A DNA stretch of 20,274 nt from a virus (Duplodnaviria > Heunggongvirae > Uroviricota > Caudoviricetes), in the IMG/VR virus record IMGVR_UViG_2548877009_000004; one strand, 5' to 3'. The first letter of the stretch is position 1; each line of letters starts with the position of its first letter. The notes beneath the pieces were generated by a model, which saw only the letters and a list, made by a program, of their open reading frames with translations, did no database searches and was not told the origin of the DNA. Shown piece after piece: positions 1-20,274 of this stretch. Both the position numbers and the translations under genes were made by a program.

Positions 1-210
1 GTTGCCGCTGGTCGTCGTCGGTTGCACCTCCAAGCAGTCTGTCAGTCAGTGCGTGAAGCCACCACCGCCTCCGGCGTGGATAATGCAGCCTCCCCCCGAC
101 TGGCAGACACCGCTGAACGGGATTATTTCACCCTCCGGGAACGACTGGTAATGATGCAGGCCCAACTTGAAGGTGCTCAGCAATACATAACCGAGCAGTG
201 TTTAAAGTAA
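1..210 (+). CDS. Rz: i-spanin Rz, C-terminal part (5' end lies outside the window)
   Basis: Frame 1 is open from base 1 and translates to VAAGRRRLHLQAVCQSVREATTASGVDNAASPRLADTAERDYFTLRERL..., which closely matches the C-terminus of lambda Rz as I recall it. Stop codon at 208-210. Confidence 0.88.
   Translation, partial: VAAGRRRLHLQAVCQSVREATTASGVDNAASPRLADTAERDYFTLRERLVMMQAQLEGAQQYITEQCLK
2..151 (+). CDS. Rz1: o-spanin Rz1, embedded in the +1 frame of Rz (5' end outside the window)
   Basis: Frame 2 from base 2 translates to LPLVVVGCTSKQSVSQCVKPPPPPAWIMQPPPDWQTPLNGIISPSGNDW, ending at TAA 149-151. The proline-rich sequence matches lambda Rz1. It is missing from the ORF track because its start lies upstream of the window. 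Confidence 0.85.
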   Translation: MPLVVVGCTSKQSVSQCVKPPPPPAWIMQPPPDWQTPLNGIISPSGNDW

Positions 211-265
211 AATCTTAACTACAATATGATTCATTTTGATGATTGTTTCATAAGGAACAGTGAAG

Positions 266-310
266 TAAGATCTAAGAGGAGTTAAATTTTATACAGTATA
301 ATCATAATAT
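266..310 (+). promoter_or_regulatory. Possible sigma70 promoter for the trkG moron
   Basis: AT-rich intergenic region after Rz with TATAAT at 297-302 and CATAAT at 303-308, about 40-50 nt upstream of the trkG start. The -35 element is weak (ttaaat at 282-287). Hexamer match only. Confidence 0.3.
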
Positions 311-347
311 TGCAGCAAGGTGGTTATAATTGAAAGAATATTTAGAT

Positions 348-1805
348 ATGAATACATCTCATGTAAGAGTTGTTACTCATATGTGTGGGTTCCTGGTTTG
401 GCTCTATAGTCTTTCAATGTTGCCACCAATGGTTGTAGCATTGTTTTATAAAGAAAAAAGCCTGTTCGTTTTCTTTATAACTTTCGTTATATTTTTTTGC
501 ATTGGTGGCGGAGCGTGGTATACAACTAAGAAATCTGGCATTCAATTACGTACCCGTGATGGGTTTATTATAATTGTAATGTTTTGGATTTTGTTTTCTG
601 TTATTAGTGCATTCCCTTTATGGATTGACTCAGAACTTAATTTAACGTTCATTGATGCTCTGTTTGAAGGGGTTTCTGGAATAACAACAACAGGAGCAAC
701 TGTAATTGATGATGTTAGTTCATTACCTCGGGCATATTTGTACTATCGGTCACAGTTAAATTTTATAGGTGGTTTAGGAGTTATTGTTCTGGCGGTTGCT
801 GTATTGCCATTATTGGGTATTGGTGGTGCAAAGCTTTATCAGTCAGAAATGCCGGGGCCATTTAAGGATGACAAACTCACTCCCCGCCTGGCCGATACGT
901 CACGGACACTGTGGATAACTTATTCTTTATTAGGTATTGCTTGTATTGTCTGTTATAGACTTGCAGGAATGCCTTTGTTTGATGCTATTTGTCACGGGAT
1001 TTCCACAGTTTCGCTTGGTGGTTTCTCAACTCATAGCGAGAGTATCGGATATTTTAATAACTATTTGGTTGAGCTGGTGGCTGGTTCTTTTTCCCTGCTA
1101 TCGGCTTTCAACTTCACTCTTTGGTATATTGTTATTAGCAGGAAAACGATAAAACCTTTAATCAGAGATATTGAACTTCGTTTCTTTCTGTTAATAGCCT
1201 TAGGGGTGATCATTGTTACCTCTTTCCAGGTCTGGCATATAGGTATGTATGACTTGCATGGAAGTTTTATTCATTCGTTTTTTCTTGCCAGCTCCATGCT
1301 CACTGATAATGGTTTAGCTACGCAGGATTATGCAAGTTGGCCCACGCACACGATAGTGTTTTTGCTGTTGTCAAGTTTCTTTGGGGGATGTATAGGTTCA
1401 ACTTGTGGTGGAATTAAGTCACTTCGATTTCTTATACTTTTAAAACAAAGCAAACACGAGATAAATCAGCTTTCTCATCCCAGAGCGTTGTTGAGTGTAA
1501 ATGTAGGAGGGAAGATAGTTACAGATCGTGTAATGAGGTCTGTATGGAGTTTCTTTTTTCTTTATACTCTCTTCACGGTGTTTTTTATACTGGTGTTAAA
1601 TGGTATGGGATATGATTTTCTTACATCATTTGCAACAGTGGCTGCATGTATTAATAATATGGGATTAGGTTTTGGGGCTACTGCATCGTCATTCGGAGTG
1701 CTTAATGACATTGCAAAATGTTTAATGTGCATAGCTATGATTCTTGGTCGCCTTGAAATTTATCCTGTTATTATATTGTTTTCAGGTTTTTTTTGGCGCT
1801 CCTAA
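348..1805 (+). CDS. trkG: TrkG/TrkH-family Trk-system potassium uptake protein (prophage moron)
   Basis: The 485-aa product begins MNTSHVRVVTHMCGFLVWLYSL... and is a polytopic membrane protein. Family motifs are present (GITTTGAT, LYQSEMPGPFKDDK, GGCIGSTCGGIK, C-terminal GRLEIYPVIILF). N-terminus matches my recall of E. coli TrkG. The gene is conspicuously AT-rich compared with flanking phage genes. An in-frame TTG at 330 with AGGTGG 5 nt upstream is an alternative start. Confidence 0.9.
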   Translation: MNTSHVRVVTHMCGFLVWLYSLSMLPPMVVALFYKEKSLFVFFITFVIFFCIGGGAWYTTKKSGIQLRTRDGFIIIVMFWILFSVISAFPLWIDSELNLTFIDALFEGVSGITTTGATVIDDVSSLPRAYLYYRSQLNFIGGLGVIVLAVAVLPLLGIGGAKLYQSEMPGPFKDDKLTPRLADTSRTLWITYSLLGIACIVCYRLAGMPLFDAICHGISTVSLGGFSTHSESIGYFNNYLVELVAGSFSLLSAFNFTLWYIVISRKTIKPLIRDIELRFFLLIALGVIIVTSFQVWHIGMYDLHGSFIHSFFLASSMLTDNGLATQDYASWPTHTIVFLLLSSFFGGCIGSTCGGIKSLRFLILLKQSKHEINQLSHPRALLSVNVGGKIVTDRVMRSVWSFFFLYTLFTVFFILVLNGMGYDFLTSFATVAACINNMGLGFGATASSFGVLNDIAKCLMCIAMILGRLEIYPVIILFSGFFWRS

Positions 1806-1891
1806 TATATGGCTGATTTATAATTGTGAGTTTAATATTATGTTGACTCACTCATTGATCCAATACCTAACTTTACCAGCAACCCCTCCGT

Positions 1892-1925
1892 CCCCAGTAG
1901 CACTGGCTGCTGGGGTGCGTTTTAT
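1892..1925 (+). terminator. Possible intrinsic terminator downstream of trkG
   Basis: Inverted repeat ccccag(1892-1897)/ctgggg(1910-1915) with inner ccagt/actgg pairing, followed by tgcgttttatt. Stem/loop geometry is imperfect. Confidence 0.35.
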
Positions 1926-1942
1926 TCATAAAGCAAGGCTGT

Positions 1943-2737
1943 ATGAGCGAGAAATTAAAGATAGTCTATCGCCCATTACAAGAATTGTCACCGTATGCGC
2001 ACAACGCCAGGACGCACAGCCCTGAGCAGGTGGCACAACTGGTAGAAAGTATTAAGCAATTCGGCTGGACTAATCCGGTGCTGATTGACGAAAAGGGCGA
2101 AATTATTGCGGGTCACGGTCGTGTTATGGCGGCTGAAATGCTCAAAATGGATTCTGTTCCGGTCATTGTTCTGTCTGGCCTGACGGATGAGCAGAAAAAG
2201 GCGTACCGCCTGGCAGATAATCGCCTGCCGATGAATGCTGGCTGGGATGAAGATCTGTTGCGGATGGAGCTGTCGGACCTAATCAATGCTGATTTTGATG
2301 TCTCCCTGACAGGCTTCATCCCGACAGAAATTGATGAACTGTTGACGGATGTTTTGCCCGGTACAGGAAATGAGGAGGAGCCGTATACGACGAAAATTGA
2401 TACGCCTGTTTATGAGCCGTCGGGCGGTAAACCGGATATCAGTGAACTGTACGACGATACGAAAACTCAGGAGCTGATCAGCCGGATACGTTCGGCGTCC
2501 CTTGAGCCTGATATTGAGAAATTCCTCCTGTGTGCGGCAGAACGTCACACGGTGTTTAATTTCAGCAGAATTGCGGACTATTACGCTCACGCCCCCTCTG
2601 AAATTCAGTGCCTTTTCGAGGAGTCGGCGCTGGTGATCATTGATTATCAGCAGGCTATTGAAAATGGATTTGTCCGAATGACGCAGCGCATGGTGGAGAT
2701 CATGCATGGCGGGGAGGAGGAGGAGGAATATGCGTGA
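1943..2737 (+). CDS. ParB/Srx-like nuclease-domain protein (phage accessory protein)
   Basis: The N-terminal ~90 aa show the ParB N-domain pattern (IVYRPLQELSPYAHNARTHSPEQVAQLVESIKQFGWTNPVLIDEKGEIIAGHGRVMAAEMLKMDSVPVIVL). The C-terminus is an acidic tail (GGEEEEEYA). AAGG lies upstream of ATG 1943. Confidence 0.75.
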   Translation: MSEKLKIVYRPLQELSPYAHNARTHSPEQVAQLVESIKQFGWTNPVLIDEKGEIIAGHGRVMAAEMLKMDSVPVIVLSGLTDEQKKAYRLADNRLPMNAGWDEDLLRMELSDLINADFDVSLTGFIPTEIDELLTDVLPGTGNEEEPYTTKIDTPVYEPSGGKPDISELYDDTKTQELISRIRSASLEPDIEKFLLCAAERHTVFNFSRIADYYAHAPSEIQCLFEESALVIIDYQQAIENGFVRMTQRMVEIMHGGEEEEEYA

Positions 2738-3662
2738 TGATTTTTGCGCCTTTATTCTGACTCACGGGCGACCGGACAAAGTTCTGACTTACCGGACGTT
2801 GCGTCGTGCTGGCTATACCGGGAAAATTTTTATCGTTGTTGATGATGAAGATAAGACACGGCATCAGTACATGGCTGAATTTGGTGAACAGGTGCTGGTA
2901 TTTTCCAAAGCCGATATTGCCAGTCGTTTTGACGAAGCCGATAATTTTGGTGATCGCCGCTCAATTTTTTACGCCCGTAATGCCTGTTTCGACCTGGCAA
3001 AACTGGTCGGGTGTAAATACTTCATTCAGCTCGATGATGATTATCACGAGTTCCAGTTTCGGGTGGATCGCAACTATGACCAGGCCTATTTCCCGATAAG
3101 GAAACTGGATGCGATCCTTTCTGAAATGCTGGCGTATTACGAATCAATACCCGCGCTTTCCATCGCTATGTCGCAGGGCGGGGATTTTCTTGGTGACAAT
3201 GGCGGCCATGCTTCGTGGGTGAAACGCAAGGCAATGAACAGCTTTATCTGTTCGGTTGATCGACCGTTCTCATTCATGGGGCGCATTAACGAGGATGTGA
3301 ATACGTACACGAATCTCGGTCGCTGTGGTGAATTGTTTATGACGATCGGTGCTGTCCAGTTAGGGCAGAAACAGACGCAGAAAAACAGCGGCGGAATGAC
3401 CGAGCTGTATCTGGATTCCGGAACCTACGTTAAAAGTTTTTACTCCGTCATGTATTCGCCGTCGTGCGTAAAAATCTCACTGATGGGTGCCAGCCATAAA
3501 CGCATTCACCATCAGGTCACCTGGAACAACGCTGCAGTAAAAATCCTTCACGAAAAATACAGGAAGAAGACACCCTGCATATCAATGGGGGTGACAAATG
3601 ATTCCGTATTCGAAAGTCGAGTCTCTGGCAGCGTGCCGGATGACTGCACAACAAATCGCTGA
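2730..3662 (+). CDS. Soluble GT-A-fold (GT2-like) glycosyltransferase-like protein, function unknown
   Basis: Motif layout matches GT-A enzymes: FILTHGRPDK (cf. IIPTYNR), IFIVVDDEDK (cf. IVVDDGS), ARNACFDLAKLVGCKYFIQLDDDY (ARN...A + DxD). No hydrophobic transmembrane stretch is evident. The ORF track starts it at 2706; I prefer ATG 2730 because a perfect GGAGGAGGAGGA Shine-Dalgarno precedes it. Confidence 0.6.
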   Translation: MRDDFCAFILTHGRPDKVLTYRTLRRAGYTGKIFIVVDDEDKTRHQYMAEFGEQVLVFSKADIASRFDEADNFGDRRSIFYARNACFDLAKLVGCKYFIQLDDDYHEFQFRVDRNYDQAYFPIRKLDAILSEMLAYYESIPALSIAMSQGGDFLGDNGGHASWVKRKAMNSFICSVDRPFSFMGRINEDVNTYTNLGRCGELFMTIGAVQLGQKQTQKNSGGMTELYLDSGTYVKSFYSVMYSPSCVKISLMGASHKRIHHQVTWNNAAVKILHEKYRKKTPCISMGVTNDSVFESRVSGSVPDDCTTNR

Positions 3663-3849
3663 CGTTCTGGATGTTGATCTGAACCGACTGAAAGAAAATC
3701 GGGAAGCAATGACAGATTTTTATGCGGCCATCCGTAAGGGCAGAGCGAAAGGTGAAGCCGAGTTACGAGCGGCATTGTTTAAGCTTGCCAGAAAAGGGGA
3801 TGCCTTTGCTCTGCGCGAACTACTCAGGGTGGATAAAAATCAGGACTAA
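3598..3849 (+). CDS. Small putative DNA-binding protein (helix-turn-helix-like), possible packaging accessory
   Basis: 83-aa ORF with a GGGGGTGA Shine-Dalgarno 3-6 nt before ATG 3598. An HTH-like segment (TAQQIADVLDVDLNRLKEN) is present. It lies immediately upstream of terS and overlaps the 3' end of the preceding gene by 65 nt. Confidence 0.5.
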   Translation: MIPYSKVESLAACRMTAQQIADVLDVDLNRLKENREAMTDFYAAIRKGRAKGEAELRAALFKLARKGDAFALRELLRVDKNQD

Positions 3850-3852
3850 CTG

Positions 3853-4947
3853 ATGAGCAGACCGGACTGGGGGGCGTTGCAGCAGGAGTATATTGCTGAA
3901 TACACCCGCTCCGGTATATCTCCGGTGGCATGGTGTGAAGCAAGGGGACTGAACTACGCAACAGCCCGTCGTTACATCAAAAAAACTCCGAAAAATGCGC
4001 AGAAAGAAATGCGCAAAACTGCGCAAAAAAGTGCGCGAAAAAAAACTGCGCAGACTGCGCAAAGGCAGAACGGAAAATCTCAGAAAAAAAAGGCTGTATC
4101 CGATGCACTCCTGATTGAGGGGGACACGGAAGAAATTTCGTTCTGCCCCGATGAATTCGGTATTTCTGACCAGCAGGCAAAATTCGCCATGTTGGTTGCT
4201 CAGGGGAAAAAGCCGACAGAGGCATACCGACTGGCTGGTTATGAGGGGCAAGGTGCGACAGCTAACAGCAACGCCAGCCGTATGCTTAGAAATGCCAGGG
4301 TTTATCGTGCTATCAGCTACTTCCGCAATCAGTACCAGAAACGCTATACCGCAGACCTGGATTTACTGGTGAGCCAGTTGATGGCCATTGTCCAGGCCGA
4401 CCCCAATCAGTTGGCACAATTTCGCCGTGTTAACTGCCGTTATTGCTGGGGCGAGAATCATCTCTACCAGTGGCGTGATATTGCAGAATTCGATAAGGCT
4501 GCGGCACAGGCCTCCAGAGATGGTAAACCCGAGCCGGAATATGGAGGCCTCGGCTTTGTTGATAACGCCATACCCAATCCTGATTGCCCGAAGTGCTGCG
4601 GTGAGGGAACAGGACAGCTTTATATGGCTGATACCACACTGCTTGATGGGGATGCGCGGCAATTATATGCAGGGTCAAAGCTCGGAAAATACGGTGTTGA
4701 GATCCTGCTGGAGGATAAGGCTGCCGCCCGGCGTGAATTGTTGCGTTTGCTTTCTGCTGGCGGGGCATTATGTGCAGATAAGCGGCTACAGGAACTGGAA
4801 ATTGAACGGCGCAGAATAGAGAACCAGAAGCTGCGCAAAGAGATCGAAACGGTGGAGGATAATGAACATCCCCAGCCTGTGGCGATCAATATTAATGTGG
4901 TTGATGCCAGATTAAGGAGTGATGAAGATGATCTCTCCGACGCTTAA
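3853..4947 (+). CDS. Terminase small subunit (extended form with basic linker and Cys-rich zinc-ribbon-like region)
   Basis: N-terminal HTH (ISPVAWCEARGLNYATARRYIKK) and a small-terminase-like core (QQAKFAMLVAQGKKPTEAYRLAGYEGQGATANSNASRMLRNARVYRAISYF). CxxC ... CxxCC cluster (CRYCWGENH ... CPKCCGEG). Sits directly upstream of the large terminase. Confidence 0.78.
   Translation: MSRPDWGALQQEYIAEYTRSGISPVAWCEARGLNYATARRYIKKTPKNAQKEMRKTAQKSARKKTAQTAQRQNGKSQKKKAVSDALLIEGDTEEISFCPDEFGISDQQAKFAMLVAQGKKPTEAYRLAGYEGQGATANSNASRMLRNARVYRAISYFRNQYQKRYTADLDLLVSQLMAIVQADPNQLAQFRRVNCRYCWGENHLYQWRDIAEFDKAAAQASRDGKPEPEYGGLGFVDNAIPNPDCPKCCGEGTGQLYMADTTLLDGDARQLYAGSKLGKYGVEILLEDKAAARRELLRLLSAGGALCADKRLQELEIERRRIENQKLRKEIETVEDNEHPQPVAININVVDARLRSDEDDLSDA
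3996..4061 (+). repeat. Six direct TGCGCR repeats phased by A-tracts inside terS
   Basis: TGCGCA/TGCGCG at 3996, 4010, 4020, 4032, 4047 and 4056, spaced 9-15 nt, each followed by an A-run. This stretch encodes the basic low-complexity linker AQKEMRKTAQKSARKKTAQTAQRQ. Confidence 0.7.
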
Positions 4948-6229
4948 TGTGCCTCAGGCGCGATTTCTTTCAATGCCCCATAAATTTAAAGCCTATATTG
5001 CTGGTTTTGGCTCGGGCAAAACATGGGTTGGGTGTGGCGGCATATGCAAGGGGATTTGGGAGCATCCAGGTATAAATCAGGGATATTTTGCGCCAACGTA
5101 TCCCCAAATTCGCGATATTTTTTACCCTACAGTGGAAGAAGTTGCTGCTGACTGGGGATTGAACGTAAAAATTAATGAGGGAAATAAAGAGGTTCACTTT
5201 TATTACGGACGCCAGTATCGGGGAACCACTATCTGCAGATCGATGGAGAAGCCACAAACGATCGTCGGTTTCAAAATTGGTAATGCGCTGGTGGATGAAC
5301 TGGACATTTTGCCGAAGGAAAAAGCCAGAACGGCGTGGCGCAAGATAATTGCGCGTATGCGTTATAAGATTGATGGACTTCGCAACGGTATTGACGTTAC
5401 AACCACGCCGGAAGGATTCAAATTTGTCTACGAGCAGTTTGTTAAAGCCGTGCGTGAAAAAACAGAGCTGGCCTCACTGTATGGTCTGGTGCAGGCATCT
5501 ACTTTCGATAATGAAAAGAACCTGCCAGCAGATTACATTCCTTCACTTCTTGAATCATACCCTCCAGAGCTGATTAAAGCCTATCTTCTAGGACGGTTTA
5601 CTAACCTGACAAGTGGTACTGTTTACCATCAGTTTGACCGGAAACTGAATAATTGCGAAGAAGTGGAGCAGCCAGGGGAGCCGATTTATATTGGGATGGA
5701 TTTTAACGTTGGAAAGATGGCGGGAATCGTCCATGTGCTGCGTTTGGGGCTTCCATGTGCGGTAACTGAAATCATCAATGCCTACGATACGCCGGATATG
5801 ATCCGCATCATTAAAGAACGCTTCTGGCTGTATGATGGGAATGATTACCGGAAAGTGAGGGAAATTTATATTTATCCAGATGCTTCCGGGGATTCCAGAA
5901 AATCAAGTAACGCAAGTACGACGGATATAGCCCAGCTTAAGCAGGCTGGATTTAACGTTGTGGTGAACAGCTCGAACCCGCCAGTAAAAGATCGCGTTAA
6001 CTCAATGAATGCAATGTTCTGCAATGCCAATGGTGAGCGTCGCTATAAAGTTAATGTGAAGCGTTGCCCGTTATATGCCGAATCTCTGGAGCAACAGGTC
6101 TGGGATGAGAAGGGGGAGCCTGATAAAAAATCTGGCAATGATCACCCGAATGATGCCGGAGGTTATTTCATCGTTAAGCAATTCCCTATTGTCAAACCGA
6201 CCGGAAGAGTCACATCACTTCGGATTTAA
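4928..6229 (+). CDS. Terminase large subunit (ATPase/nuclease)
   Basis: Walker A-like motif AGFGSGKT near the N-terminus. Size (~433 aa) and position after terS fit. AAGGAG at 4914-4919 lies 8 nt before ATG 4928; the ORF track starts at GTG 4919. Confidence 0.88.
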   Translation: MISPTLNVPQARFLSMPHKFKAYIAGFGSGKTWVGCGGICKGIWEHPGINQGYFAPTYPQIRDIFYPTVEEVAADWGLNVKINEGNKEVHFYYGRQYRGTTICRSMEKPQTIVGFKIGNALVDELDILPKEKARTAWRKIIARMRYKIDGLRNGIDVTTTPEGFKFVYEQFVKAVREKTELASLYGLVQASTFDNEKNLPADYIPSLLESYPPELIKAYLLGRFTNLTSGTVYHQFDRKLNNCEEVEQPGEPIYIGMDFNVGKMAGIVHVLRLGLPCAVTEIINAYDTPDMIRIIKERFWLYDGNDYRKVREIYIYPDASGDSRKSSNASTTDIAQLKQAGFNVVVNSSNPPVKDRVNSMNAMFCNANGERRYKVNVKRCPLYAESLEQQVWDEKGEPDKKSGNDHPNDAGGYFIVKQFPIVKPTGRVTSLRI

Positions 6230-6231
6230 TT

Positions 6232-7638
6232 ATGGCTGATATATCAACACCCAACCTCGACTATAACGATATGCTGGAGGCGTGGGATATTAACGACGCA
6301 CTGATGGGCGGTACGCTTGAAATGCGCAGGCAGGGGGAAAATTATCTCCCAAAATGGCCTAACGAAGATGAAGACGCTTATAAAAAACGCCTGTCTGTGG
6401 CTACGCTACTTCCTGTGTATGAAGAAAGCATCAAGCAAAATATTGGGCGCATATTTGCAGAGCCGACAGTATTGAGTGAGGAAACGCCGGCAAAAATCAG
6501 GGAATATGCAGAAAATATCGACATGGAGGGGAGCCGACTGGATGTGTGGGCGCAGCAATTTTTCAGCCTCGCATTTCAGTATGGTGTGGCACATGCGCTG
6601 GTGGACTATCCACGAACGGATATGAAAGAGATTCGGACAAAAGCCGATGAAAACGCGACCGGTGGTCGTCCGTACGTTACGATGCTGAATCCACGCCAGG
6701 TTATTGGATGGAAATCGAAAGTTGAAAAAGGGAAAGTTGTTCTCACTGATTTGCGTATAAAAGAGGTCATCATTATTGATGGTGATGATTTCGGGCAGAA
6801 GAAGGTGGAGCAGATCCGCCATATTATGCCCCGTCGAGTTGAAATTTATCGACGTAGCGAAGGCACTAATGGCGAATCTGTCTGGACGCTTCATGAGTCA
6901 TGGAATACCAGCCGTGATGATATTCCTCTGGTAACACTGTACACGAAGAAAACAGGATTTATGCGTGGTACACCGCCATTGCTTAATCTTGGCTTGCTGA
7001 ATATCAAGCACTGGCAAAGCCAGAGCGAGCAGGACAATATTCTTCATGTTGCCCGCGTTCCATTGCTGGTGGCCTACGGGCTGGACAGGAATGAAGAACT
7101 GACGGTTGGTGCATCCACCGCTACGATTTTTGAGGACAGAACAAAAAATGGCCTCGAATATGTTGAACATAGTGGCGCAGCGATAGAATCTGGCGAAACA
7201 TCACTTGAGAAGCTGGAAAATCAGATGCGTCATGCCGGCGCTAAACTTCTGCGTGCTGAAAATACATCCACCAAATCTGTTGATCAGACTAATGAAGAGC
7301 GAATGCAGGAAAACTCGCCGCTTTATACAATGGCGAACTCCCTCGAAGATGCCCTCGATAATATTCTCCAGATAATGGCGGAATGGATCGGAGAGAGTTG
7401 CGGTGGCAATGTGGATGTGCGCACTGAACTGGATGTATCTGCCCAGGTGTTTGACTCATCCTCCGCGCTGGCTGTTCAGTCATTGCGTCAGGGCGGTGAT
7501 ATACGTCAGATTGATGCGGTTCGGGTGTTGCAGGCGTTGAAATTTATCGATCAGGATTCCCGTCCAGAGGAAGTGATCGATGAATTAAAAAATCAGAGTG
7601 TAATGCTGATGGAAATCAATGATGCAAACCGTGAATGA
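6232..7638 (+). CDS. Portal protein
   Basis: 468-aa acidic protein immediately after the large terminase and translationally coupled to it (TAA 6227-6229, ATG 6232). Size and position are typical of portal proteins. Confidence 0.78.
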   Translation: MADISTPNLDYNDMLEAWDINDALMGGTLEMRRQGENYLPKWPNEDEDAYKKRLSVATLLPVYEESIKQNIGRIFAEPTVLSEETPAKIREYAENIDMEGSRLDVWAQQFFSLAFQYGVAHALVDYPRTDMKEIRTKADENATGGRPYVTMLNPRQVIGWKSKVEKGKVVLTDLRIKEVIIIDGDDFGQKKVEQIRHIMPRRVEIYRRSEGTNGESVWTLHESWNTSRDDIPLVTLYTKKTGFMRGTPPLLNLGLLNIKHWQSQSEQDNILHVARVPLLVAYGLDRNEELTVGASTATIFEDRTKNGLEYVEHSGAAIESGETSLEKLENQMRHAGAKLLRAENTSTKSVDQTNEERMQENSPLYTMANSLEDALDNILQIMAEWIGESCGGNVDVRTELDVSAQVFDSSSALAVQSLRQGGDIRQIDAVRVLQALKFIDQDSRPEEVIDELKNQSVMLMEINDANRE

Positions 7639-8734
7639 ACGGCTGCGTGATGAATCAATTGCTCATGCAGTCTGGATATCCCGCTATAGCACTGGCGTGG
7701 CTGCCAGAATGGTGAAAATACTGAATGACAGCGATGCGGAACTTACTGCTCGCCTGCTGATAGCACTGGACAGCCTCGATCCAGGTAGTTTTACCGTTAA
7801 GCGCCTGGAGTCACTTCTGGCGAGCGTCAGAGAGGTTAACCGCACTGCTATTAACAGCATGTTTACCAGTCTCTCCAGAGAGCTGAACGAGCTGGCAATT
7901 TATGAGGCTGGTTATCAGTTAAGTCTGTTTGATTCTATGCTACCTGATTTTGTTGCTGATGTTCACCCTCTGGTTGGTATCTCTCCTGATGCACTTTATG
8001 CCGCTGCAATGGCGCGACCATTCCAGGGACGACTGCTCAGTGAGTGGGCCTCAGATCTTGAGGCGGATCGGCTCAGACGCATAACAAATACAGTGCGTCA
8101 GGGTTTTTTGCTGGGGGATACCAATGAGCAGATCGCAAGAAAAATTCGGGGACATGTCAGTAAGGGATTTCAGGATGGTGCATTGCAGATGAGCCGGGCT
8201 AATGCGGCCAGCATTGCAAAAACAGCGGTTGGACATCTTGCTGCTACTGCCCGTGAGAGTTTTGCCAGCGCGAATAATGATTTGATTAAGGGTAAGCAAT
8301 GGTTATCAACGCTTGATAATCGTACTACGCCACAATGTCGAATCAGGGATCGCCTCAAATATACGCTGAATAATAAACCTGTAGGTCACAGCGTGCCTTA
8401 TTTGCAGGGGCCGGGAAAAATTCATTTCTGCTGCCGCTCAACGGAAACGTTCATTCTGAAATCAGCGAAGGAACTGGGTATTGATGTTCGCGATATTTCC
8501 CCGGCTGAGCGGGCCAGCATGGATGGCGTGGTGGCCGGAGATACAACCTACAGGGAATGGTTTTTGCGTCAGCCTTACACCAGACAAAAACAGATTGTGG
8601 GGGAAACCCGAGCAAAGCTGATTCGGGATGGTGGTATGTCGCCAGATGAATTTTACACCGATAAAGGCGAATGGCTGACGCTGAAGCAGCTCCGTGAGCG
8701 TGATGCACAGGTATTCAGAAAAGCAGGGATTTAA
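7619..8734 (+). CDS. Head morphogenesis / minor capsid protein (SPP1 gp7 / Mu F-like)
   Basis: 371-aa ORF overlapping the portal stop by 20 nt. Conserved position between portal and scaffold; call by synteny and size rather than a recognised motif. Confidence 0.65.
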   Translation: MMQTVNERLRDESIAHAVWISRYSTGVAARMVKILNDSDAELTARLLIALDSLDPGSFTVKRLESLLASVREVNRTAINSMFTSLSRELNELAIYEAGYQLSLFDSMLPDFVADVHPLVGISPDALYAAAMARPFQGRLLSEWASDLEADRLRRITNTVRQGFLLGDTNEQIARKIRGHVSKGFQDGALQMSRANAASIAKTAVGHLAATARESFASANNDLIKGKQWLSTLDNRTTPQCRIRDRLKYTLNNKPVGHSVPYLQGPGKIHFCCRSTETFILKSAKELGIDVRDISPAERASMDGVVAGDTTYREWFLRQPYTRQKQIVGETRAKLIRDGGMSPDEFYTDKGEWLTLKQLRERDAQVFRKAGI

Positions 8735-11842: not shown

Positions 11843-12223
11843 ATGGCAAAGGCATGGGATATAGAACCGTCAATATTTGCCGGGATGATTGAGGAAGATG
11901 TAGGGCTGAAGATTCGCTACATCGCTATTCAGATTCTTACTGCTATTGATATTGCTGCTCCGGTTGATACCGGACGTTTCAGAAATAACAACCTGGTGTC
12001 GTTACAGCATCCCGATTTTGGTATATCTGATAACGTGGATCCGAACGGTACGATTGCTGTTCAGCGTGGGATCGGGGTTATTTCGAAAGCTGCAAATTAC
12101 GGAGTTATTTATATCCAGAATAACCTTCCTTATGCAGAGGCTCTTGAAAACGGTCATTCACAACAAGCGCCAACTGGCGTGTATGCCAACGCTTTTCATG
12201 GTGTTTTACAGGCTTACAAATGA
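11843..12223 (+). CDS. Tail component (HK97 gp10-like / neck protein)
   Basis: 126-aa ORF; TAAATG coupling to the previous gene and AGGAG upstream. Call by synteny. Confidence 0.5.
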   Translation: MAKAWDIEPSIFAGMIEEDVGLKIRYIAIQILTAIDIAAPVDTGRFRNNNLVSLQHPDFGISDNVDPNGTIAVQRGIGVISKAANYGVIYIQNNLPYAEALENGHSQQAPTGVYANAFHGVLQAYK

Positions 12224-12612: not shown

Positions 12613-12638
12613 CGCAATTAATGACATAGGAGGCTCCT

Positions 12639-13601
12639 GTGAGTTCAGGTGCAAAGGTTATCTCGGCATTTATCCGGGAGACGGTTGCAGGCACTACGCC
12701 AGCAAGTGGTGACTGGAGTTTATTAAAACGCACAAGCTGGGGAGTAAAACCCACCCAGAATAAAGGCGAAAATAATGAGATTGGTGGCTCCCGGATGGCT
12801 CAGGGGGCGACGCCTGGCACTGTGGATGTCGGCGGTGATGTTGGTACCAAATTTCGCTGGGGTCAACATGATGATTTTCTTGCATCCTGTTTCGGCGCGG
12901 AATGGTCAGGCGATTCTCTGACAATGGGGAATGAGCGAATAACATTTTCTCTGGCGACCTATGCGTCCGATGTCGGAATTGCCTCTGTCGTCAGAGGAGC
13001 GCAGGTTGGCTCATGGAAAATGCAGATCCCTAACGACGGCGATATTACAGCGACCGTAACCTTTGCCGGACTGGACTGGGAATCAAAGGCCGATGATACG
13101 AATTTTATCAAAGGCGAACCTGTGGATAGTGCAGGAAAGCTACGTTATTCGTTTAAGGAGGTTTCAGCAGTAAGCCTGAATGGTGTTGCCGGAGGTAACG
13201 GTTTTTGTATCGACAGTTTTGATATTCAGTTCGATAACAAACTCCAGACACAGCGTTGTATCGGGACTGGCTCGCCTTATGCAGGAGCAAATATTCCGAC
13301 TACTTTTACACCGTCCGGTACGGTGACGCTTTCATGGTCTAAAGCCGCGTGGGAAATCTGGAGTAAAACACTGACTGGAGAAACAGTTCCGATCAGCTTC
13401 ACGCTTTCGAATGGAGAGGGGGCATACACTTTCAGTTTCCCGAAGGTTCAGGTGTCAGGTGAATGGCCTGATGGGGGTAATAGCGACATTATCCAGGTTC
13501 AATTGAGCATTACCGCAGCAGATGAAGCACCTACGATAACCAGAAAAAAAAATTCCCCGGCTGCCGTGATCGCAAAAGCCAGTGCTGAGGCGATTAGTTG
13601 A
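12639..13601 (+). CDS. Major tail (tube) protein
   Basis: 320-aa ORF starting at GTG 12639 with AGGAGG 6 nt upstream. Gly/Ser/Thr-rich, beta-type composition. Sits directly before the G/GT chaperone pair. Confidence 0.65.
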   Translation: MSSGAKVISAFIRETVAGTTPASGDWSLLKRTSWGVKPTQNKGENNEIGGSRMAQGATPGTVDVGGDVGTKFRWGQHDDFLASCFGAEWSGDSLTMGNERITFSLATYASDVGIASVVRGAQVGSWKMQIPNDGDITATVTFAGLDWESKADDTNFIKGEPVDSAGKLRYSFKEVSAVSLNGVAGGNGFCIDSFDIQFDNKLQTQRCIGTGSPYAGANIPTTFTPSGTVTLSWSKAAWEIWSKTLTGETVPISFTLSNGEGAYTFSFPKVQVSGEWPDGGNSDIIQVQLSITAADEAPTITRKKNSPAAVIAKASAEAIS

Positions 13602-13649
13602 TTTTCCGTTATTCCTCCTGTGGTACTGCCCTACAGGGGGACGCATTGA

Positions 13650-14111
13650 ATGAGGTTATGGATGTTTATTCTTAATCAGAAAATTATCATTGGTGGAGAA
13701 CGCTGGTTTACGCCAATGAAGGACTTAAAACCTGTAGACGGGTTAAAACTGTTGGTGGCAAGCAGCGATAACGATCAGTATCGCTCCCGTAATGCATTAA
13801 TCCGTCGCCACATTGAGAAAATGGATGCCAGTTTGCACGTCGGAACGAAGGAGTTTGATATTTCAAAGGTTTCCGAGGTGGATTCTGTTGATGATTTACT
13901 CATTGATAATGCCGCTCGTTATCTGCTGAAAGACTGGAAAGGGGTTGGTGAACTGGTTAATGGTGTTGAGGTTGCACTGGAATATACGGCAGAACGAGGG
14001 ATCGCGCTGCTTAAGCAGAATCCAGAGTTGTACTGGCAGATCCTTGCAGAAGCAGCCAGCATCGCCCAGGGTAAAGAGCAGCAGAAGCAGGATACGATAA
14101 AAAAGCCATAG
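13650..14111 (+). CDS. Tail assembly chaperone (lambda gpG analogue)
   Basis: 153-aa acidic protein between the major tail and tape measure genes. It ends ...QDTIKKP with the slippery heptamer A AAA AAG inside its last codons. AGGGGGA lies upstream of ATG 13650. Confidence 0.7.
   Translation: MRLWMFILNQKIIIGGERWFTPMKDLKPVDGLKLLVASSDNDQYRSRNALIRRHIEKMDASLHVGTKEFDISKVSEVDSVDDLLIDNAARYLLKDWKGVGELVNGVEVALEYTAERGIALLKQNPELYWQILAEAASIAQGKEQQKQDTIKKP
14099..14105 (+). other. Programmed -1 ribosomal frameshift slippery site (A AAA AAG)
   Basis: Heptamer X XXY YYZ in the G frame, 2 codons before the G stop. The -1 frame is open from 14075 to 14419. Confidence 0.65.
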
Positions 14112-14419
14112 CTGCCCAGCGGTGGTTATCGGAGTTCGGGGGAGAAAGGGGGGAAAAGGCAAGATGGAAGCGAGAAAAACTCAGGTTGCCACCGATACCG
14201 GAACCAGAAATAGACCCGGTGCTTAAGGAGTTGTTGTACGCCTATTCGGTAATATCCCGTGCCCGACGTTATGCTGGAATGGCTGGGGTGCCTTTGCCTT
14301 TATCTCTGACAGAGATAAATGAATATTTAGCCACTCATCCGGTATTGATTGAGCGCGATGAATTTGAAGCAGTGATCTTTGCACTGGATGACCAGTATTT
14401 TCAGGAGCAGTGTGTGTAG
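14105..14419 (+). CDS. Tail assembly chaperone frameshift extension (lambda gpT analogue; expressed as a G-T fusion)
   Basis: The -1 frame relative to G is open from 14075 and ends at TAG 14417-14419. The track lists it only from TTG 14186 (77 aa); read from the slip site it adds about 104 aa to G. Confidence 0.65.
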   Translation, partial: AIAAQRWLSEFGGERGEKARWKREKLRLPPIPEPEIDPVLKELLYAYSVISRARRYAGMAGVPLPLSLTEINEYLATHPVLIERDEFEAVIFALDDQYFQEQCV

Positions 14420-14539
14420 TTGTTAATTACGTACACTCTGTTACAGAGATGTGATGGTGTCTTTAATTAAATCGATGATGCTCCTGGAGAAAAGCATTGC
14501 GTGGCCTCGTAATCGCTATATCTACTATTATGTCGCCTG

Positions 14540-14566
14540 AAACCCACTTCGCGGTGGGTTTTTTGT
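14540..14566 (+). terminator. Intrinsic terminator upstream of the tape measure gene
   Basis: aaacccac (14540-14547), ttcgcg loop, gtgggttt (14554-14561), then a T-run; AGGAG and ATG 14585 follow. Confidence 0.6.
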
Positions 14567-14584
14567 TGTCAGGAGTTTTAATAA

Positions 14585-17500
14585 ATGGCAGAGCAAACCT
14601 CGCGTCTCGCAATAATTATTGATAGCACTGGAGCGAAAAATAATGCTGACAATCTGACCTCCTCATTAGTCAAAATGACGCAGGCTGGGGAAACTGCTGC
14701 AAATAGCGCAGGGAAAGTGACTAAGGCAACAGAAGATGAGAAGAACGCGCTCGCAAAATTAAAAGCAGCTATTGATCCAGTTGGTGCCGCAATTGATACT
14801 GTCGGTCGACGCTATTCTGAATTAAAGAAATTTTTCGATAAAGGGCTTATTGATAAAGAAGAATATGAATTTCTTGTCCGTAAACTTAATGAAACCACAG
14901 AGGAATTGAGCGGGGTTGCGCAAGCGCAGAGAGAAGCCGAGAAGGCCGGAAAACTTGCTGCCGCCCAGCAGGAAGCGCAGGCTCAGGCCTTTCAAAGAAT
15001 GCTGGACAAGATCGACCCTCTGGCTGCGGCGCTAAGAAATCTTGAACAACAGCATGATGAACTTAATGCTGCGTTTGCATCCGGGAAAATAAATGGTTCT
15101 CAGTTTGAGAATTATAGCCGAAAAATACAGGAAACACGGCGAGAGCTTACCGGAGAGGCTCAGGCAGAGCGAGAAGCAGCAAAAGCGCATGATGAACAGG
15201 TTGTTGCTTTGCAACGTCTGATTGCTCAACTTGATCCTGTCGGAACTGCTTTTAATCGTCTGGTAGAACAACAGAAACAGCTCAATGAAGCAAAAGCTAA
15301 GGGGATGCTTTCTCCTGAAATGTATGAGGAGCTTTCTGGAAAACTTCGTGCTATGCGGAGTGAGCTTGAGGTTACTCAATCACAATTAAGCAAAACCGGA
15401 ATGTCGGCAAAACAAACGGCTTTTGCTATGCGCATGTTGCCTGCACAAATGACGGATATTGTTGTTGGGTTGTCCACTGGTCAGTCGCCATTTATGGTGT
15501 TAATGCAGCAGGGCGGCCAGCTAAAAGATATGTTCGGTGGGATTGGCCCGGCGATCAAAGGTGTAGGTTCTTATGTGCTGGGATTAATTAATCCTTTTAC
15601 CCTGGCCGCAGCAGCCGTTGGGGTCTTAGGACTGGCTTACTATAAAGGCTCTCAGGAGCAGGACGAATTTAATAAATCTCTTATTCTTACCGGAAATCAG
15701 TTGGGGACAACCAGCGGGCAATTGGGCGATATAGCTCAACGTGCCGGGAATGCGGCTGATTCGACAACTGGTGCTGCGGCGGCAGTATTAAATCAGCTTG
15801 TGCGTTCGGGAAAGGTAGCGAGCAGTTCGCTGGAGCAAGTGACGACAGCGATAGTAAAAACGAGCGAAGTAACAGGAATATCAACCGAACAACTGGTTAA
15901 TGACTTCAATGAAATTGCAAAGGATCCTGTCAGTGCCATATCAAAACTTAATGATCAGTACCATTTTCTGACACTTGCGACTTATAACCAGATTAAGGCG
16001 CTACAGGATGAAGGGAACCAGCAGGAGGCCGCCCGCATTGCGACAGAAGAATACTCATCCTCAATGATCCAGCGCACCAACCAGATTAAAGAAAATCTTG
16101 GTTATCTTGAGACTGCATGGAAAGCTGTCGCAGACTCCGCAAAATGGGCATGGGATTCCATGCTGGATATTGGCCGTGAGGCCTCCCTTGATCAAAAAAT
16201 CTCAGATGTTCTCCGTCAAATTGATGAAATAGAAAAAAATACCCGACCCGGAGTTTTCGGGTTAGGTGGCATTGGAGATGGCGGAGCTCAAAATAAAAGG
16301 CTGGCACGATTAAAGCAGCAATTGGGCGTACTTCAAGCAGAAAAAATTGCTCAGGACGTACTAAATTCATCAATAAACGATTACAACAAGCGACAACAGG
16401 AAGGAATTGAACTCAGACAGAGAGCAGATGCCTTTTCAAAACAATATCAGACCCGGGAGCAGCAGAGAGCTAGTGAACTTGCAAAACTGGAAAAGCTAAA
16501 GAATCAGTATTCAAAGGAAGAATATAATAATCTTATCGCTCAAATAAATGAGCGTTATAAAGATCCAAAGCAACCAAAGGCGAAAGGTTATTCTGATGAT
16601 GCAGCCCAACGAATGATTGATCATCTGAATCAACAGAATGCGTTACTAAGTTCACAAGCTGAGTTGACCGTTAAATTAAGTTCCTCTGAACAGGAACTGG
16701 TTAAGTGGCGTCAGCGGATTGCCGACCTAGAGTCACGACCATCATCGAAATTAACCCAGGATCAGAAATCGCTTCTCTTACACCGGGAAGAAATAACCGC
16801 GTTGATGGAGAAAAATGTTGCGATTGAAAAGAATAACAGGCTAATCAAGGAATCCGCCGAAATAACAGCATGGCGTGATTCATTGCAGGCTTCGATTGAT
16901 AATCGTCAGCAGGGGTATGATATTCAGATTGCTGGTTATGGGGTTGGCGATAAAAATCAGCAACGCCAGCAGGAATTACTGCGGATTGAACATGGATATA
17001 ACAATCAGCGTCTGCAACTTGAACGTGACTATGCAGATAAATCCCGTGGAATGTCAGATCATGTTTTTCAAGAGAAAATGCAGGCTCTGAATGATGCTCT
17101 GGAACGGGAAAAAGAAATTGTCAGACAGAAAAACGAGCAACTCGATATTCAGGCAGGAGACTGGGTTAGTGGTGCCTCCCAGGGATTCAATAACTGGCTG
17201 GATGACACTAAGGATATCAGTGAGCAGATAAAATCAACCACGACTCAGATGTTTGATGGGATGACCGATGCGCTGGGTGATTTTGTCACGACAGGCAAGG
17301 CAAATTTTCGTTCTTTCGCTACTTCCGTGATTTCGGATCTTAGTCGAATGGCATTAAAGGCTTCAATTACTGGGATTTTCGACAGCATTAGTAACAGTTC
17401 TTCTGGGGGGATTTTAGGAACTATCGGGAGTGCTATTAGTAAATTTATTCCGAATGCAAAGGGCGGTGTTTATGAGTCTCCGTCATTGAGCACGTATTCG

Positions 17501-17818
17501 AACGGTATTTATGATTCCCCGCAATTTTTTGCTTTTGCAAAAGGGGCTGGTGTTTTTGGTGAGGCTGGACCGGAAGCCATTATGCCATTAACACGAACTT
17601 CCGATGGTTCTCTTGGTGTCAGAGCTATTAATAGTAAAAGTGGTAATGGAGGCGGAGATATTACCTATGCCCCTGTATACCAAATCACTATTCAAAATGA
17701 CGGCCAGAATGGAGAGATTGGCCCTCAGGCAATAAAAGCACTTATGGGGATGGTTGATCAGCGGGTGCAGGGCAATCTGTTAAATATGCGACGTGATGGG
17801 GGAATATTAAGTGGCTAA
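14585..17818 (+). CDS. Tail tape measure protein
   Basis: 1077 aa, long helical Gln/Ala/Glu-rich sequence. Three N-terminal tandem repeats. A hydrophobic, Gly-rich central segment ([36 protein letters not shown]). Located between GT and M. Confidence 0.9.
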
Positions 17819-18149
17819 TACGGAAGAATTTCACTGGTTACCAGAGGATGGAATGAAAACAGAAAATAAACCATCGATAAAAACTGTAAGATTTGGCGAT
17901 GGTTATGAGCAACGAAGTCCAAATGGACTTAATCATTCTCTGCGCGTTTTCACCTGTGATTTCAAAGTTGAGGCGAATGAACGTGATTCATTTGAAAAAT
18001 TTTTAGCCCGGCATGAAGGCTATAAATCTTTTTTTTGGCGCCCGCCGGGTATTAACAGAAAAATCAGAGTGGTGTGTCGAACGTGGTCAGCGACAGAACA
18101 TATCACCTATACCGATTTTTCGTGTCAGTTTGACGAAGTGGTGATCTGA
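17811..18149 (+). CDS. M: Minor tail protein M
   Basis: Contains [16 protein letters not shown] (lambda M has VRFGDGYSQRAPAGLN) and ends ...FDEVVI (lambda ...FEQVVN). GTG start overlaps the tape measure stop; ATG 17853 is an alternative start. Confidence 0.8.
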
Positions 18150-18847
18150 TGCAGGACATACAACAGGAAACGCTGAATGAATGCATTCGTGCGGAGCAGT
18201 CGGCCAGCGTGGTGCTCTGGGAAATCGACCTGACCGAGGTAGGCGGGGATCGCTACTTTTTCTGTAATGAGCAGAACGAAAAAGGTGAGTCTGTCACCTG
18301 GCAGAGTCGGCAGTATCAGGCCTATCCCATTCAGGGGAGTGGATTTGAGATGAACGGCAAGGGCAGTGCTGCCCGTCCGACACTGACGGTCTCTAACCTG
18401 CACGGCATGATCACCGGGATGGCGGAAGATCTGCAGAGTCTGGTCGGCGGAACGGTGGTCCGGCGTAAGGTTTACGCCCGTTTTCTGGATGCGGTGAACT
18501 TCGTCAACGGAAACAGTGACGCCGATCCGGAGCAGGAGGTGATCAGCCGCTGGCGCATCGAGCAGTGCAGCGAACTGAGCGCGGTGAGTGCCTCTTTTGT
18601 ACTGTCCACGCCGACGGAAACGGATGGCGCTGTTTTTCCGGGACGTATCATGCTGGCCAACACCTGCACCTGGACCTATCGCGGTGACGAGTGCGGTTAT
18701 AGCGGTCCGGCGGTCGCGGATGAATATGACCAGCCGACGTCCGATATCACGAAGGATAAATGCAGCAAATGCCTGAGCGGCTGTAAGTTCCGCAATAATG
18801 TCGGCAACTTTGGCGGCTTCCTTTCCATTAACAAACTTTCGCAGTAA
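18149..18847 (+). CDS. L: Minor tail protein L
   Basis: 232 aa, [33 protein letters not shown]...FGGFLSINKLSQ; nearly identical to lambda gpL as I recall it. Start overlaps the M stop (ATGA). Confidence 0.95.
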   Translation: MQDIQQETLNECIRAEQSASVVLWEIDLTEVGGDRYFFCNEQNEKGESVTWQSRQYQAYPIQGSGFEMNGKGSAARPTLTVSNLHGMITGMAEDLQSLVGGTVVRRKVYARFLDAVNFVNGNSDADPEQEVISRWRIEQCSELSAVSASFVLSTPTETDGAVFPGRIMLANTCTWTYRGDECGYSGPAVADEYDQPTSDITKDKCSKCLSGCKFRNNVGNFGGFLSINKLSQ

Positions 18848-18852
18848 ATCCC

Positions 18853-19182
18853 ATGACAGAGACAGAATCAGCGATTCTGGCGCACGCCCGGCGATGTGCG
18901 CCAGCGGAGTCGTGCGGCTTCGTGGTGAGAACACCGGAGGGGGAAAGATATTTTCCCTGCGTGAATATCTCTGGTGAGCCGGAGGCGTATTTCCGGATGT
19001 CGCCGGAGGACTGGCTGAGTGCAGAAATGCAGGGAGAGATTGTGGCGCTGGTCCACAGCCACCCCGGTGGTCTGCCCTGGCTGAGTGAGGCCGACCGGCG
19101 GCTGCAGGTGCAGAGTGATTTGCCGTGGTGGCTGGTCTGCCGGGGGGCGATTCATAAGCGGAGTCGTGCGGCTTCGTGGTAA
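18853..19182 (+). CDS. K: Tail tip assembly protein K, 5' fragment (gene disrupted by internal 254-bp tandem duplication)
   Basis: MTETESAILAHARRCAPAESCGFVV...HSHPGGLPWLSEAD matches the lambda K N-terminus with its JAMM/MPN motif. The frame is lost at the duplication junction and terminates at TAA 19180-19182. Confidence 0.8.
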   Translation: MTETESAILAHARRCAPAESCGFVVRTPEGERYFPCVNISGEPEAYFRMSPEDWLSAEMQGEIVALVHSHPGGLPWLSEADRRLQVQSDLPWWLVCRGAIHKRSRAASW

Positions 19183-19412
19183 GCACGCCGGAGGGGGAAA
19201 GATATTTCCCCTGCGTGAATATCTCCGGTGAGCCGGAGGCGTATTTCCGTATGTCGCCGGAAGACTGGCTGCAGGCAGAAATGCAGGGTGAGATTGTGGC
19301 GCTGGTCCACAGCCACCCCGGTGGTCTGCCCTGGCTGAGTGAGGCCGACCGGCGGCTGCAGGTGCAGAGTGATTTGCCGTGGTGGCTGGTCTGCCGGGGG
19401 ACGATTTATAAG
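18905..19412. repeat. Direct tandem duplication, 2 x 254 bp, inside gene K
   Basis: Copy 1 is about 18905-19158 and copy 2 about 19159-19412. They align base for base without indels and differ at about 12 positions (~95% identity). 254 is not a multiple of 3. Confidence 0.85.
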
Positions 19413-19850
19413 TTCCGCTGTGTGCCGCATCTCACCGGGCGGCGCTTTGAGCACGGTGTGACGGACTGTTACACACTGTTCCGGGATGCTTATCATCTGG
19501 CGGGGATTGAGATGCCGGACTTTCATCGTGAGGATGACTGGTGGCGTAACGGCCAGAATCTCTATCTGGATAATCTGGAGGCGACGGGGCTGTATCAGGT
19601 GCCGTTGTCAGCGGCACAGCCGGGCGATGTGCTGCTGTGCTGTTTTGGTTCATCGGTGCCGAATCATGCCGCCATTTACTGTGGCGACGGCGAGCTGCTG
19701 CACCATATTCCTGAACAACTGAGCAAACGAGAGAGGTACACCGACAAATGGCAGCGACGCACACACTCCCTCTGGCGTCACCGGGCATGGCGCGCATCTG
19801 CCTTTACGGGGATTTACAACGATTTGGTCGCCGCATCGACCTTCGTGTGA
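19176..19850 (+). CDS. K: Tail tip assembly protein K, 3' fragment (second JAMM motif copy plus NlpC/P60-like domain)
   Basis: From GTG 19176 the K frame is restored inside copy 2: VSTPEGERYFPC...HSHPGG...CYTLFRDAYH...NHAAIYCGDGELLHH...AASTFV, matching lambda K through to its native stop. Confidence 0.8.
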   Translation: MVSTPEGERYFPCVNISGEPEAYFRMSPEDWLQAEMQGEIVALVHSHPGGLPWLSEADRRLQVQSDLPWWLVCRGTIYKFRCVPHLTGRRFEHGVTDCYTLFRDAYHLAGIEMPDFHREDDWWRNGQNLYLDNLEATGLYQVPLSAAQPGDVLLCCFGSSVPNHAAIYCGDGELLHHIPEQLSKRERYTDKWQRRTHSLWRHRAWRASAFTGIYNDLVAASTFV

Positions 19851-20274
19851 AAACGGGGGCTGAAGCCATCCGGGCACTGGCCACACAGCTCCCGGCGTTT
19901 CGTCAGAAACTGAGCGACGGCTGGTATCAGGTACGGATTGCCGGGCGGGACGTCAGCACGTCCGGGTTAACGGCGCAGTTACATGAGACTCTGCCTGATG
20001 GCGCTGTGATTCATATTGTTCCCAGAGTCGCCGGGGCCAAGTCAGGTGGTGTATTCCAGATTGTCCTGGGAGCTGCCGCCATTGCCGGATCATTCTTTAC
20101 TGCCGGAGCCACCCTTGCAGCATGGGGGGCAGCCATTGGGGCCGGTGGTATGACCGGCATCCTGTTTTCTCTCGGTGCCAGTATGGTGCTCGGTGGTGTG
20201 GCGCAGATGCTGGCACCGAAAGCCAGAACTCCCCGTACACAGACAACGGATAACGGCAAACAGAACACCTATTT
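19748..20274 (+). CDS. I: Tail assembly protein I (3' end outside the window)
   Basis: ATG 19748 gives MAATHTLPLASPGMARICLYGDLQRFGRRIDLRVKTGAEAIRALATQLPAF..., matching lambda gpI. The start overlaps the 3' end of K as in lambda. The frame is open to the window end, so it is absent from the ORF track. Confidence 0.9.
   Translation, partial: MAATHTLPLASPGMARICLYGDLQRFGRRIDLRVKTGAEAIRALATQLPAFRQKLSDGWYQVRIAGRDVSTSGLTAQLHETLPDGAVIHIVPRVAGAKSGGVFQIVLGAAAIAGSFFTAGATLAAWGAAIGAGGMTGILFSLGASMVLGGVAQMLAPKARTPRTQTTDNGKQNTY

Follow-up and report, generated by a model that had tools for sequence, protein, structure and literature searches.

In PMC5700373, loss of many structural genes and mosaicism across strains are attributed to the Rac prophage of Escherichia coli K-12, and a passage of PMC6379469 that cites Lawrence (2001) presents it as incomplete relative to EDL933. 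The prophages Sp10 and CP-933R, which are Rac-like, are located at ttcA (PMC4632033), and KingRac, an inducible and transmissible Rac-like prophage, took the place of K-12 Rac in the gut of mice (PMC6731689). Here we analyzed a stretch of viral DNA of 20,274 nucleotides (IMG/VR record IMGVR_UViG_2548877009_000004, Caudoviricetes), hereafter called the window, whose genes were assigned by Pfam and PHROGs scans and all lie on the + strand. With high confidence, we read the window as the block of late-operon genes from a full-length Rac-type lambdoid prophage, and K-12 Rac as what such an element became through decay. This reading carries little weight as a discovery, as K-12 Rac has long been regarded as a decayed lambdoid prophage, and earlier publications already report both its deleted state and the existence of fuller relatives. 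The practical gains of our analysis are details added to a known concept, namely base-level breakpoints for two deletions of the late region and the parentage of the K-12 genes ynaK, ydaY and ynaA.

The window was compared by blastn with positions 1409000-1437000 of the K-12 genome (NC_000913.3), in which Rac itself occupies 1411899-1434958. Exactly two K-12 blocks were obtained, in the same order and on the same strand as in the window. The first block aligned window positions 1-2196 with K-12 1423435-1425630 at 99.64% identity (8 mismatches, no gaps) and spans the Rz/Rz1 ends, trkG and the start of a ParB-like gene. The second block aligned positions 13760-15519 with K-12 1425629-1427388 (1760 bp, 99.94% identity, 1 mismatch) and spans a tail chaperone gene and the start of the tape measure gene. 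Such collinearity past trkG is far beyond chance. Between and after these two blocks, the window carries a late series of packaging, head, connector and tail genes assigned by Pfam and PHROGs.

The two blocks overlap by 2 nucleotides in K-12, whose sequence corresponds to window 1-2196 joined to 13762 onward, and therefore point to the loss of 11,565 bp, with an "AA" microhomology at the join. The second deletion starts at window position 15520 and extends into the middle of lom, beyond the window; it removed 8,394 bp relative to a full-length relative, and its join shows a 2-bp "CA" microhomology between the tape measure gene and lom. Outside the window, between ydaW and Rz, K-12 lacks a further segment of about 8.2 kb, as seen against contig ON470595 (L003; positions 25112-33311 versus K-12 1423200-1423201); this third deletion took out nin-type genes, Q and two tRNAs as well as holin and lysozyme. 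When K-12 was compared with this contig, all three deletions showed a 2-nucleotide overlap at the join. Long repeats were ruled out as the origin of the deletions, since the joins show these 2-bp overlaps only. The 60-mers spanning the K-12 junctions were sought in a set of 5,426 complete E. coli genomes, of which 346 contained the junction of deletion 1 and 345 that of deletion 2. Thirty evenly spaced junction-positive genomes were mostly K-12 laboratory derivatives, with a few animal or human isolates.

Three open reading frames (ORFs) of K-12 could be traced to their parents. YnaK (87 amino acids, aa) consists of residues 1-85 of the ParB-like protein followed by QR. YdaY (119 aa) begins with MSR, from an ATG on the ParB side, and continues with residues 38-153 of tail chaperone G, thus retaining the last 116 residues of this 153-aa protein. 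YnaA (342 aa) is made of residues 1-311 of the tape measure protein and 31 out-of-frame residues. The glycosyltransferase gene that adjoins the ParB-like gene (GT-A fold, TAGT family) lies wholly inside deletion 1 and left no remnant in K-12. Since the K-12 ORFs are truncated, frame-fused pieces of longer genes with family assignments, we infer that the direction of change would have been loss in K-12, and not gain in the element of the window.

The first-pass annotation of the window, made from the letters alone, had proposed an undeleted counterpart of what K-12 Rac has lost, collinear with Rac beyond trkG, and had asked where the deletion ends. The central proposal and the collinearity stand, and alignment with K-12 located the endpoints to the base (2196/13762 and 15519). 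An internal deletion had been put forward for K-12; the loss of head and tail genes is borne out, but it involved two separate deletions here, plus the one upstream, and not a single event. Also, the ParB-like and GT-A-like genes had been put forward as full-length counterparts of the remnant ORFs. This is right for the ParB-like gene, the parent of ynaK, but the glycosyltransferase gene was ruled out by alignment as the parent of ydaY, which comes from the chaperone gene at 13650-14111. The tape measure fragment named for K-12 in that annotation corresponds to ynaA, which holds residues 1-311 of the 1077-aa protein.

The chaperone gene carries a -1 frameshift signal, with the canonical slippery sequence A AAA AAG at 14099-14105 and a -1 frame that is open to 14419. 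This G/GT signal and the entire T-frame extension survive in K-12 (window 14099-14419, K-12 1425968-1426288), where the T part downstream of ydaY carries no annotation. In the complete genome NZ_CP123266 (L001), the RefSeq annotation mirrors the K-12 stubs at 15943-16200 and 27752-28111, which correspond to window 1943-2200 and 13752-14111. There, the intact 264-aa ParB-like ORF is labelled as a C-terminally truncated "ynaK" pseudogene, and the 153-aa chaperone as a 119-aa "YdaY" read from an internal TTG start. K-12-centred names thus cause full-length genes elsewhere to be annotated as fragments.

Relatives were searched by megablast in the 5,426 complete genomes, with a coverage threshold of at least 80% of the window. 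This threshold was reached in 692 genomes, with a best identity of 99.4%. The late block was found at two loci, ttcA (the site of true Rac) and DLP12, and is therefore a module shared by both prophage types. Full-length carriers at ttcA were strains M10 (NZ_CP010200) and OSUCMP42NDM (NZ_CP087578) and contig ON470595; their late block is shared with the window, but their K gene is uninterrupted. In M10 and OSUCMP42NDM, the region from intR to sieB at ttcA, upstream of the late block, is of the K-12 type, the early genes ahead of the block being intR-xisR-rcbA-ralR-recT-recE-racC-kilR-sieB. Contig ON470595 shows from left to right intR-xis-ralR-recT-recE-racC-kil-racR-ydaS/T/U/V/W, then Q and tRNAs, and continues with S-R-Rz-trkG, the ParB-like gene, the glycosyltransferase gene and the terminase genes. 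ON032529, another record with the block, has the K-12 right flank uspF-ompN.

At the DLP12 locus, the mosaic prophages of NZ_CP123266, NZ_CP142789 and NZ_CP138412 have the same genes from holin to tail fibre but, unlike the window, no duplication of 254 bp in gene K. The DLP12-type early and Q region comprises bet-gam, a cI-like repressor, O/P-ren, emrE-ybcK and ninE-rusA-quuD-porin-essD-rrrD-rzpD, directly before trkG. Recombination from Rac to DLP12 through shared lysis and tail-fibre-assembly genes is suggested. The right arm lom-stf-tfa-pinR-ynaE/ydfK-ynaM of NZ_CP123266, which lies beyond the window, is 94.6-98.3% identical to that of K-12. In NZ_CP123266 (positions 1-48020) and in L091 and L092, a Rac-type block runs from holin to pinR/ynaM and is followed by the DLP12 remnants ybcY/tfaX. 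Around 60 of the 105 differences between the window and its closest genome lie in 5800-9300, that is, in the terL, portal, Mu-F-like and scaffold genes. A mosaic patch that stems from a different allele of this module is indicated at these positions.

Most of the late series in the window is open. After transfer of the gene annotation from the complete genome nearest to the window, the 20 genes from trkG to L showed 0 internal stops and 0-9 aa differences, and those for TerS, TerL, portal, scaffold, capsid, connectors, terminator, tube, G/GT and tape measure are all open. The set of tail tip genes M, L, K, I and J is incomplete, as K is split and I is cut by the end of the window; J and the fibre genes fall past this end, so that the tail genes are covered here only through the start of I. 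The 109-aa ORF of the split K gene contains a JAB domain, and the 224-aa ORF a partial JAB domain and an NlpC/P60 domain (Pfam Prok-JAB, NLPC_P60); the stop of the former overlaps the GTG start of the latter in the sequence GTGGTAA. Relatives have an uninterrupted K gene of 247 aa (e.g., NZ_CP123266).

The K frame is shifted because of a tandem duplication of 254 bp, for which Tandem Repeats Finder (TRF) gave the interval 18903-19412. Relatives of the window are 254 bp shorter, and window positions 19157-20274 re-align 256 bp upstream of the point where positions 1-19158 ended in the relative. In comparison with the K allele of the relative, copy 2 shows 2 differences and copy 1 shows 11. The duplication junction was absent from the 5,426 complete E. 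coli genomes, the GTDB species representatives and IMG/VR, searched with exact and degenerate patterns, and neither of the split K ORFs had an exact match in the protein index. The duplication is therefore private to its source among all the collections searched.

In the scheme that we propose, the late operon runs from the end of the lysis cassette through trkG as cargo, the ParB-like and TAGT pair and the genes for packaging, head, connector and tail, and closes with the lambda-type tail tip genes M-L-K-I. Two illegitimate deletions at 2-bp microhomologies in K-12 would have removed 2197-13761 and the segment from 15520 to mid-lom, and fused the leftovers into the ORFs annotated as ynaK, ydaY and ynaA, while gene K of the window would be an out-of-register join of two diverged K alleles. 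Were gene K whole, such a block could presumably build particles. The K-12 likeness might alternatively reflect a recent lateral exchange of short segments (trkG, and the chaperone with the start of the tape measure) between unrelated prophages. Lambdoid prophages are mosaic, and the block itself is found behind two different early regions. However, the K-12 segments end mid-gene at 2-bp joins that give truncated, frame-shifted ORFs, they keep the order and orientation of the full block, and ttcA prophages with K-12-type intR to sieB carry the full block, which makes such an exchange highly improbable. The origin of the window in a mosaic DLP12 prophage (argU-ompT) with a recombined Rac-type late block, from holin to pinR/ynaM, is a much more serious alternative to an "intact Rac", and we regard the chances as evenly balanced. 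The homology between the DLP12-type prophage and ttcA Rac begins exactly at the holin gene, and the copies at ttcA are slightly more distant from the window (98.96-99.1%) than the best matches. The gap in identity is small, however, and mostly due to the one mosaic patch at 5.8-9.3 kb. The left-hand context, which the first-pass annotation had read as that of K-12 Rac, does match it from Rz to trkG, but this junction is common to the prophages at ttcA and at DLP12. At either site, the late block is the source of the K-12 Rac remnants (99.6-99.9%).

Several observations weigh against the full-length Rac-type reading as applied to this copy. In each of the three nearest relatives inspected (99.4%), the block follows a DLP12-type early region and is located at DLP12/ompT, NZ_CP123266 ending beside ybcY/tfaX/ompT; the window includes neither end of the prophage, so that integration at ttcA is not demonstrable for this copy; and gene K is broken. 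Also, we found no virion-derived sequence of the block, the "phage" records being in-silico prophage predictions or bacterial contigs, and KingRac probably has a different late region. KingRac was considered as an active version of the block and was not equated with it because its published gene table contains no trkG. The "phage" records were rejected as proof of particles: ON470595 and its vB_EcoS siblings come from a study of prophages within the genomes of clinical isolates, and ON470595, with its long chromosomal flanks, is in reality chromosomal sequence in which ttcA holds a full Rac. The record ON032529 ("Salmonella phage SPF_0923") is likewise a contig of bacterial origin, carrying uspF-ompN-ydbK. 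As for gene K, the duplication represents either out-of-register recombination between two diverged K alleles or an assembly or read chimera. In the latter case the true locus would be fully intact, and we hold this to be the less probable outcome, though one to be taken seriously. The junction is found in none of the collections searched, 13 of 254 positions differ between the two copies, which look like sequences of two different prophages, and K is multi-copy in most genomes (median 2 copies per genome), a classic setting for misassembly. On the other hand, the join shares only a 2-bp "AG", a junction that k-mer assemblers rarely create without spanning reads, and illegitimate recombination between co-resident lambdoid prophages also yields out-of-register joins of diverged alleles. 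Gene K of lambda is needed for tail assembly. As gene K is disrupted here, this copy would probably be unable to form tails without help, provided that the duplication is real. The full-length Rac-type block of the first-pass annotation, described there as apparently intact, with a complete series, is confirmed for the genes from trkG to L but not for K, J or the fibres, and it should be kept in mind that this copy may sit at DLP12 rather than at ttcA.

Table 1. Features of the window, with position, strand and the evidence for each assignment.
Feature	Position	Strand	Evidence
Rz spanin gene, 3' end, cut by window edge	1-210	+	Pfam Phage_lysis 5e-28; collinear with K-12 rzpR/rzoR
Embedded Rz1 (rzoR) end	1-151	+	collinear with K-12 rzoR
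trkG, K+ transporter cargo gene (moron)	348-1805	+	Pfam TrkH 1.5e-144; inside the 99.64% K-12 block
ParB-like protein, 264 aa, full length	1943-2737	+	Pfam ParB_N 28.9 bits (cut-off 26.3); phrog_620 8.6e-91
Deletion 1, block missing from K-12 Rac, 11,565 bp	2197-13761		shared "AA" 2195-2196 / 13760-13761
GT-A fold glycosyltransferase, TAGT family, 310 aa	2730-3662	+	Pfam PF20691 6.1e-35; phrog_842 1.5e-103
69-aa ORF related to part of small-terminase family	3640-3849	+	phrog_309 8.3e-23; coding sequence in L001
Small terminase subunit TerS, 364 aa	3853-4947	+	Pfam Terminase_2; phrog_51 6.4e-75
Large terminase subunit TerL	4928-6229	+	Pfam Terminase_6N 3.6e-32, Terminase_6C 3.4e-10
Portal protein (DUF4055)	6232-7638	+	Pfam 5.6e-45
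Mu-F-like head morphogenesis protein	7622-8734	+	Pfam Phage_Mu_F; phrog_241 5.8e-183
DUF6651 protein, likely scaffold	8839-9603	+	Pfam 1.1e-60; phrog_206 "head scaffolding" 3.1e-22
Major capsid protein, P22-coat-like	9702-10841	+	Pfam P22_CoatProtein
58-aa ORF, then Ad1, Hc1, Neck1/tail completion, tail terminator	10884-12612	+	phrog_1514, phrog_493, phrog_161, phrog_169; Pfam Phage_tail_terminator_5
Tail tube protein	12639-13601	+	Pfam Phage_tube_2 3.7e-32
Tail assembly chaperone G (153 aa, 13650-14111) and T extension	13650-14419	+	sequence, translations; weak Pfam Phage_TAC_18 on T
Tape measure protein, 1077 aa	14585-17818	+	Pfam TMP_2 1.4e-81, Tape_meas_lam_C
Lambda-type minor tail protein M	17811-18149	+	Pfam Phage_min_tail 1.2e-31
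Lambda-type minor tail protein L	18149-18847	+	Pfam Phage_tail_L 1.3e-98
Lambda-K-like tail tip gene, split	18853-19850	+	ORFs 18853-19182 (109 aa) and 19176-19850 (224 aa, GTG start)
254-bp tandem duplication (copies 18903-19156 / 19157-19410)	18903-19410	+	blastn overlap; TRF 2.0 copies, 95% match
Lambda-I-like tail assembly protein, cut by window end	19847-20274	+	Pfam Lambda_tail_I 3.5e-19

The ParB-like gene and the glycosyltransferase gene (window 1943-3662, just upstream of the terminase genes) overlap by 8 nucleotides. The glycosyltransferase matched PF20691 with 121.5 bits, for a cut-off of 27.5, and its DDDY and INEDVN motifs are invariant among distant homologues; a sequence search of the PDB with this protein gave no match. 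The ParB-like protein matched Spo0J/ParB N-terminal domains of the PDB at 2e-5. In Lactobacillus phage phi jlb1 and Nocardia phage NTR1, a ParB gene and then a glycosyltransferase gene stand directly ahead of the terminase genes, and in the haloarchaeal virus HHTV-2 the pair is located about 3 kb upstream of TerL (pair coordinates in the distant viruses: L005 3-1720, L007 3196-4858, L008 3274-4849). Over their full length, the proteins of these distant viruses share 34-43% identity with the ParB-like protein, C-terminal domain included, and 42-48% with the glycosyltransferase. In a survey of IMG/VR with the glycosyltransferase, a ParB-like ORF abuts its gene on the same strand in all 80 of the best 80 relatives (L011-L090). 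A jumbo Vibrio phage possesses the glycosyltransferase with no annotated ParB. The pair is conserved as a unit across distant bacterial and archaeal viruses.

DNA glycosyltransferases of the GT-A type often adjoin ParB-like and terminase genes (bioRxiv 10.1101/2023.12.21.572611), and phage thymine dioxygenases are activated by ParB homologues (PMC13229309). No TET/5mYOX protein, hydroxymethylase or alpha- or beta-glycosyltransferase of the T2/T6 kind was found among the window proteins (Pfam and PHROGs scans) or in the annotated prophages of NZ_CP123266 and ON470595. The glycosyltransferase of the window is what PMC13216743 calls a "solitary" TAGT, a kind of enzyme described there as widespread and of unknown function. 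By analogy, the pair could constitute a self-contained module for the glycosylation of DNA or virions, linked to packaging and with no hydroxymethyl-pyrimidine pathway, in which the ParB-like protein would act as an activator or loader of the transferase; we consider this speculative and rather unlikely. Nonetheless, the cassette beside the terminase genes is the sole element here that could open something new.

The TerS gene contains TGCGCA-type repeats parted by A-runs at 3978-4063 (TRF periods 12, 24 and 36). This run codes for a lysine-rich linker of TerS, and it is a possible pac or TerS-binding site. Strong terminator-like hairpins were observed on the coding strand at 1892-1915, 8754-8773, 10852-10865 and 14539-14562, that is, 3' of trkG, 5' of the scaffold-like gene, 3' of the capsid gene and directly 5' of the tape measure gene, respectively; they are presumably read through by Q-modified polymerase. 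The trkG gene has a low GC content (0.39-0.40). Scans of the whole window for tRNAs and Rfam families gave no match.

Among cultured phages, the nearest for the head was HK639, whose capsid protein shares 75% aa identity with that of the window (tblastn, phage collection), in a comparison that covered its capsid gene. The kinship with HK639 and with lambda is confined to modules. Neither trkG nor the ParB-TAGT pair is found in lambda, whereas M-L-K-I is 96.5% identical to the window in nucleotides (from 18127), and the G/GT -1 frameshift is arranged alike. K-12 Rac differs from the window by an IS5 in lomR and by the loss of the three segments described above, about 8.2 kb upstream of Rz, 2197-13761, and 15520 to mid-lom. 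Yet it shares with the window Rz/Rz1-trkG and the three gene remnants, which are 99.6-99.9% identical and in equal order.

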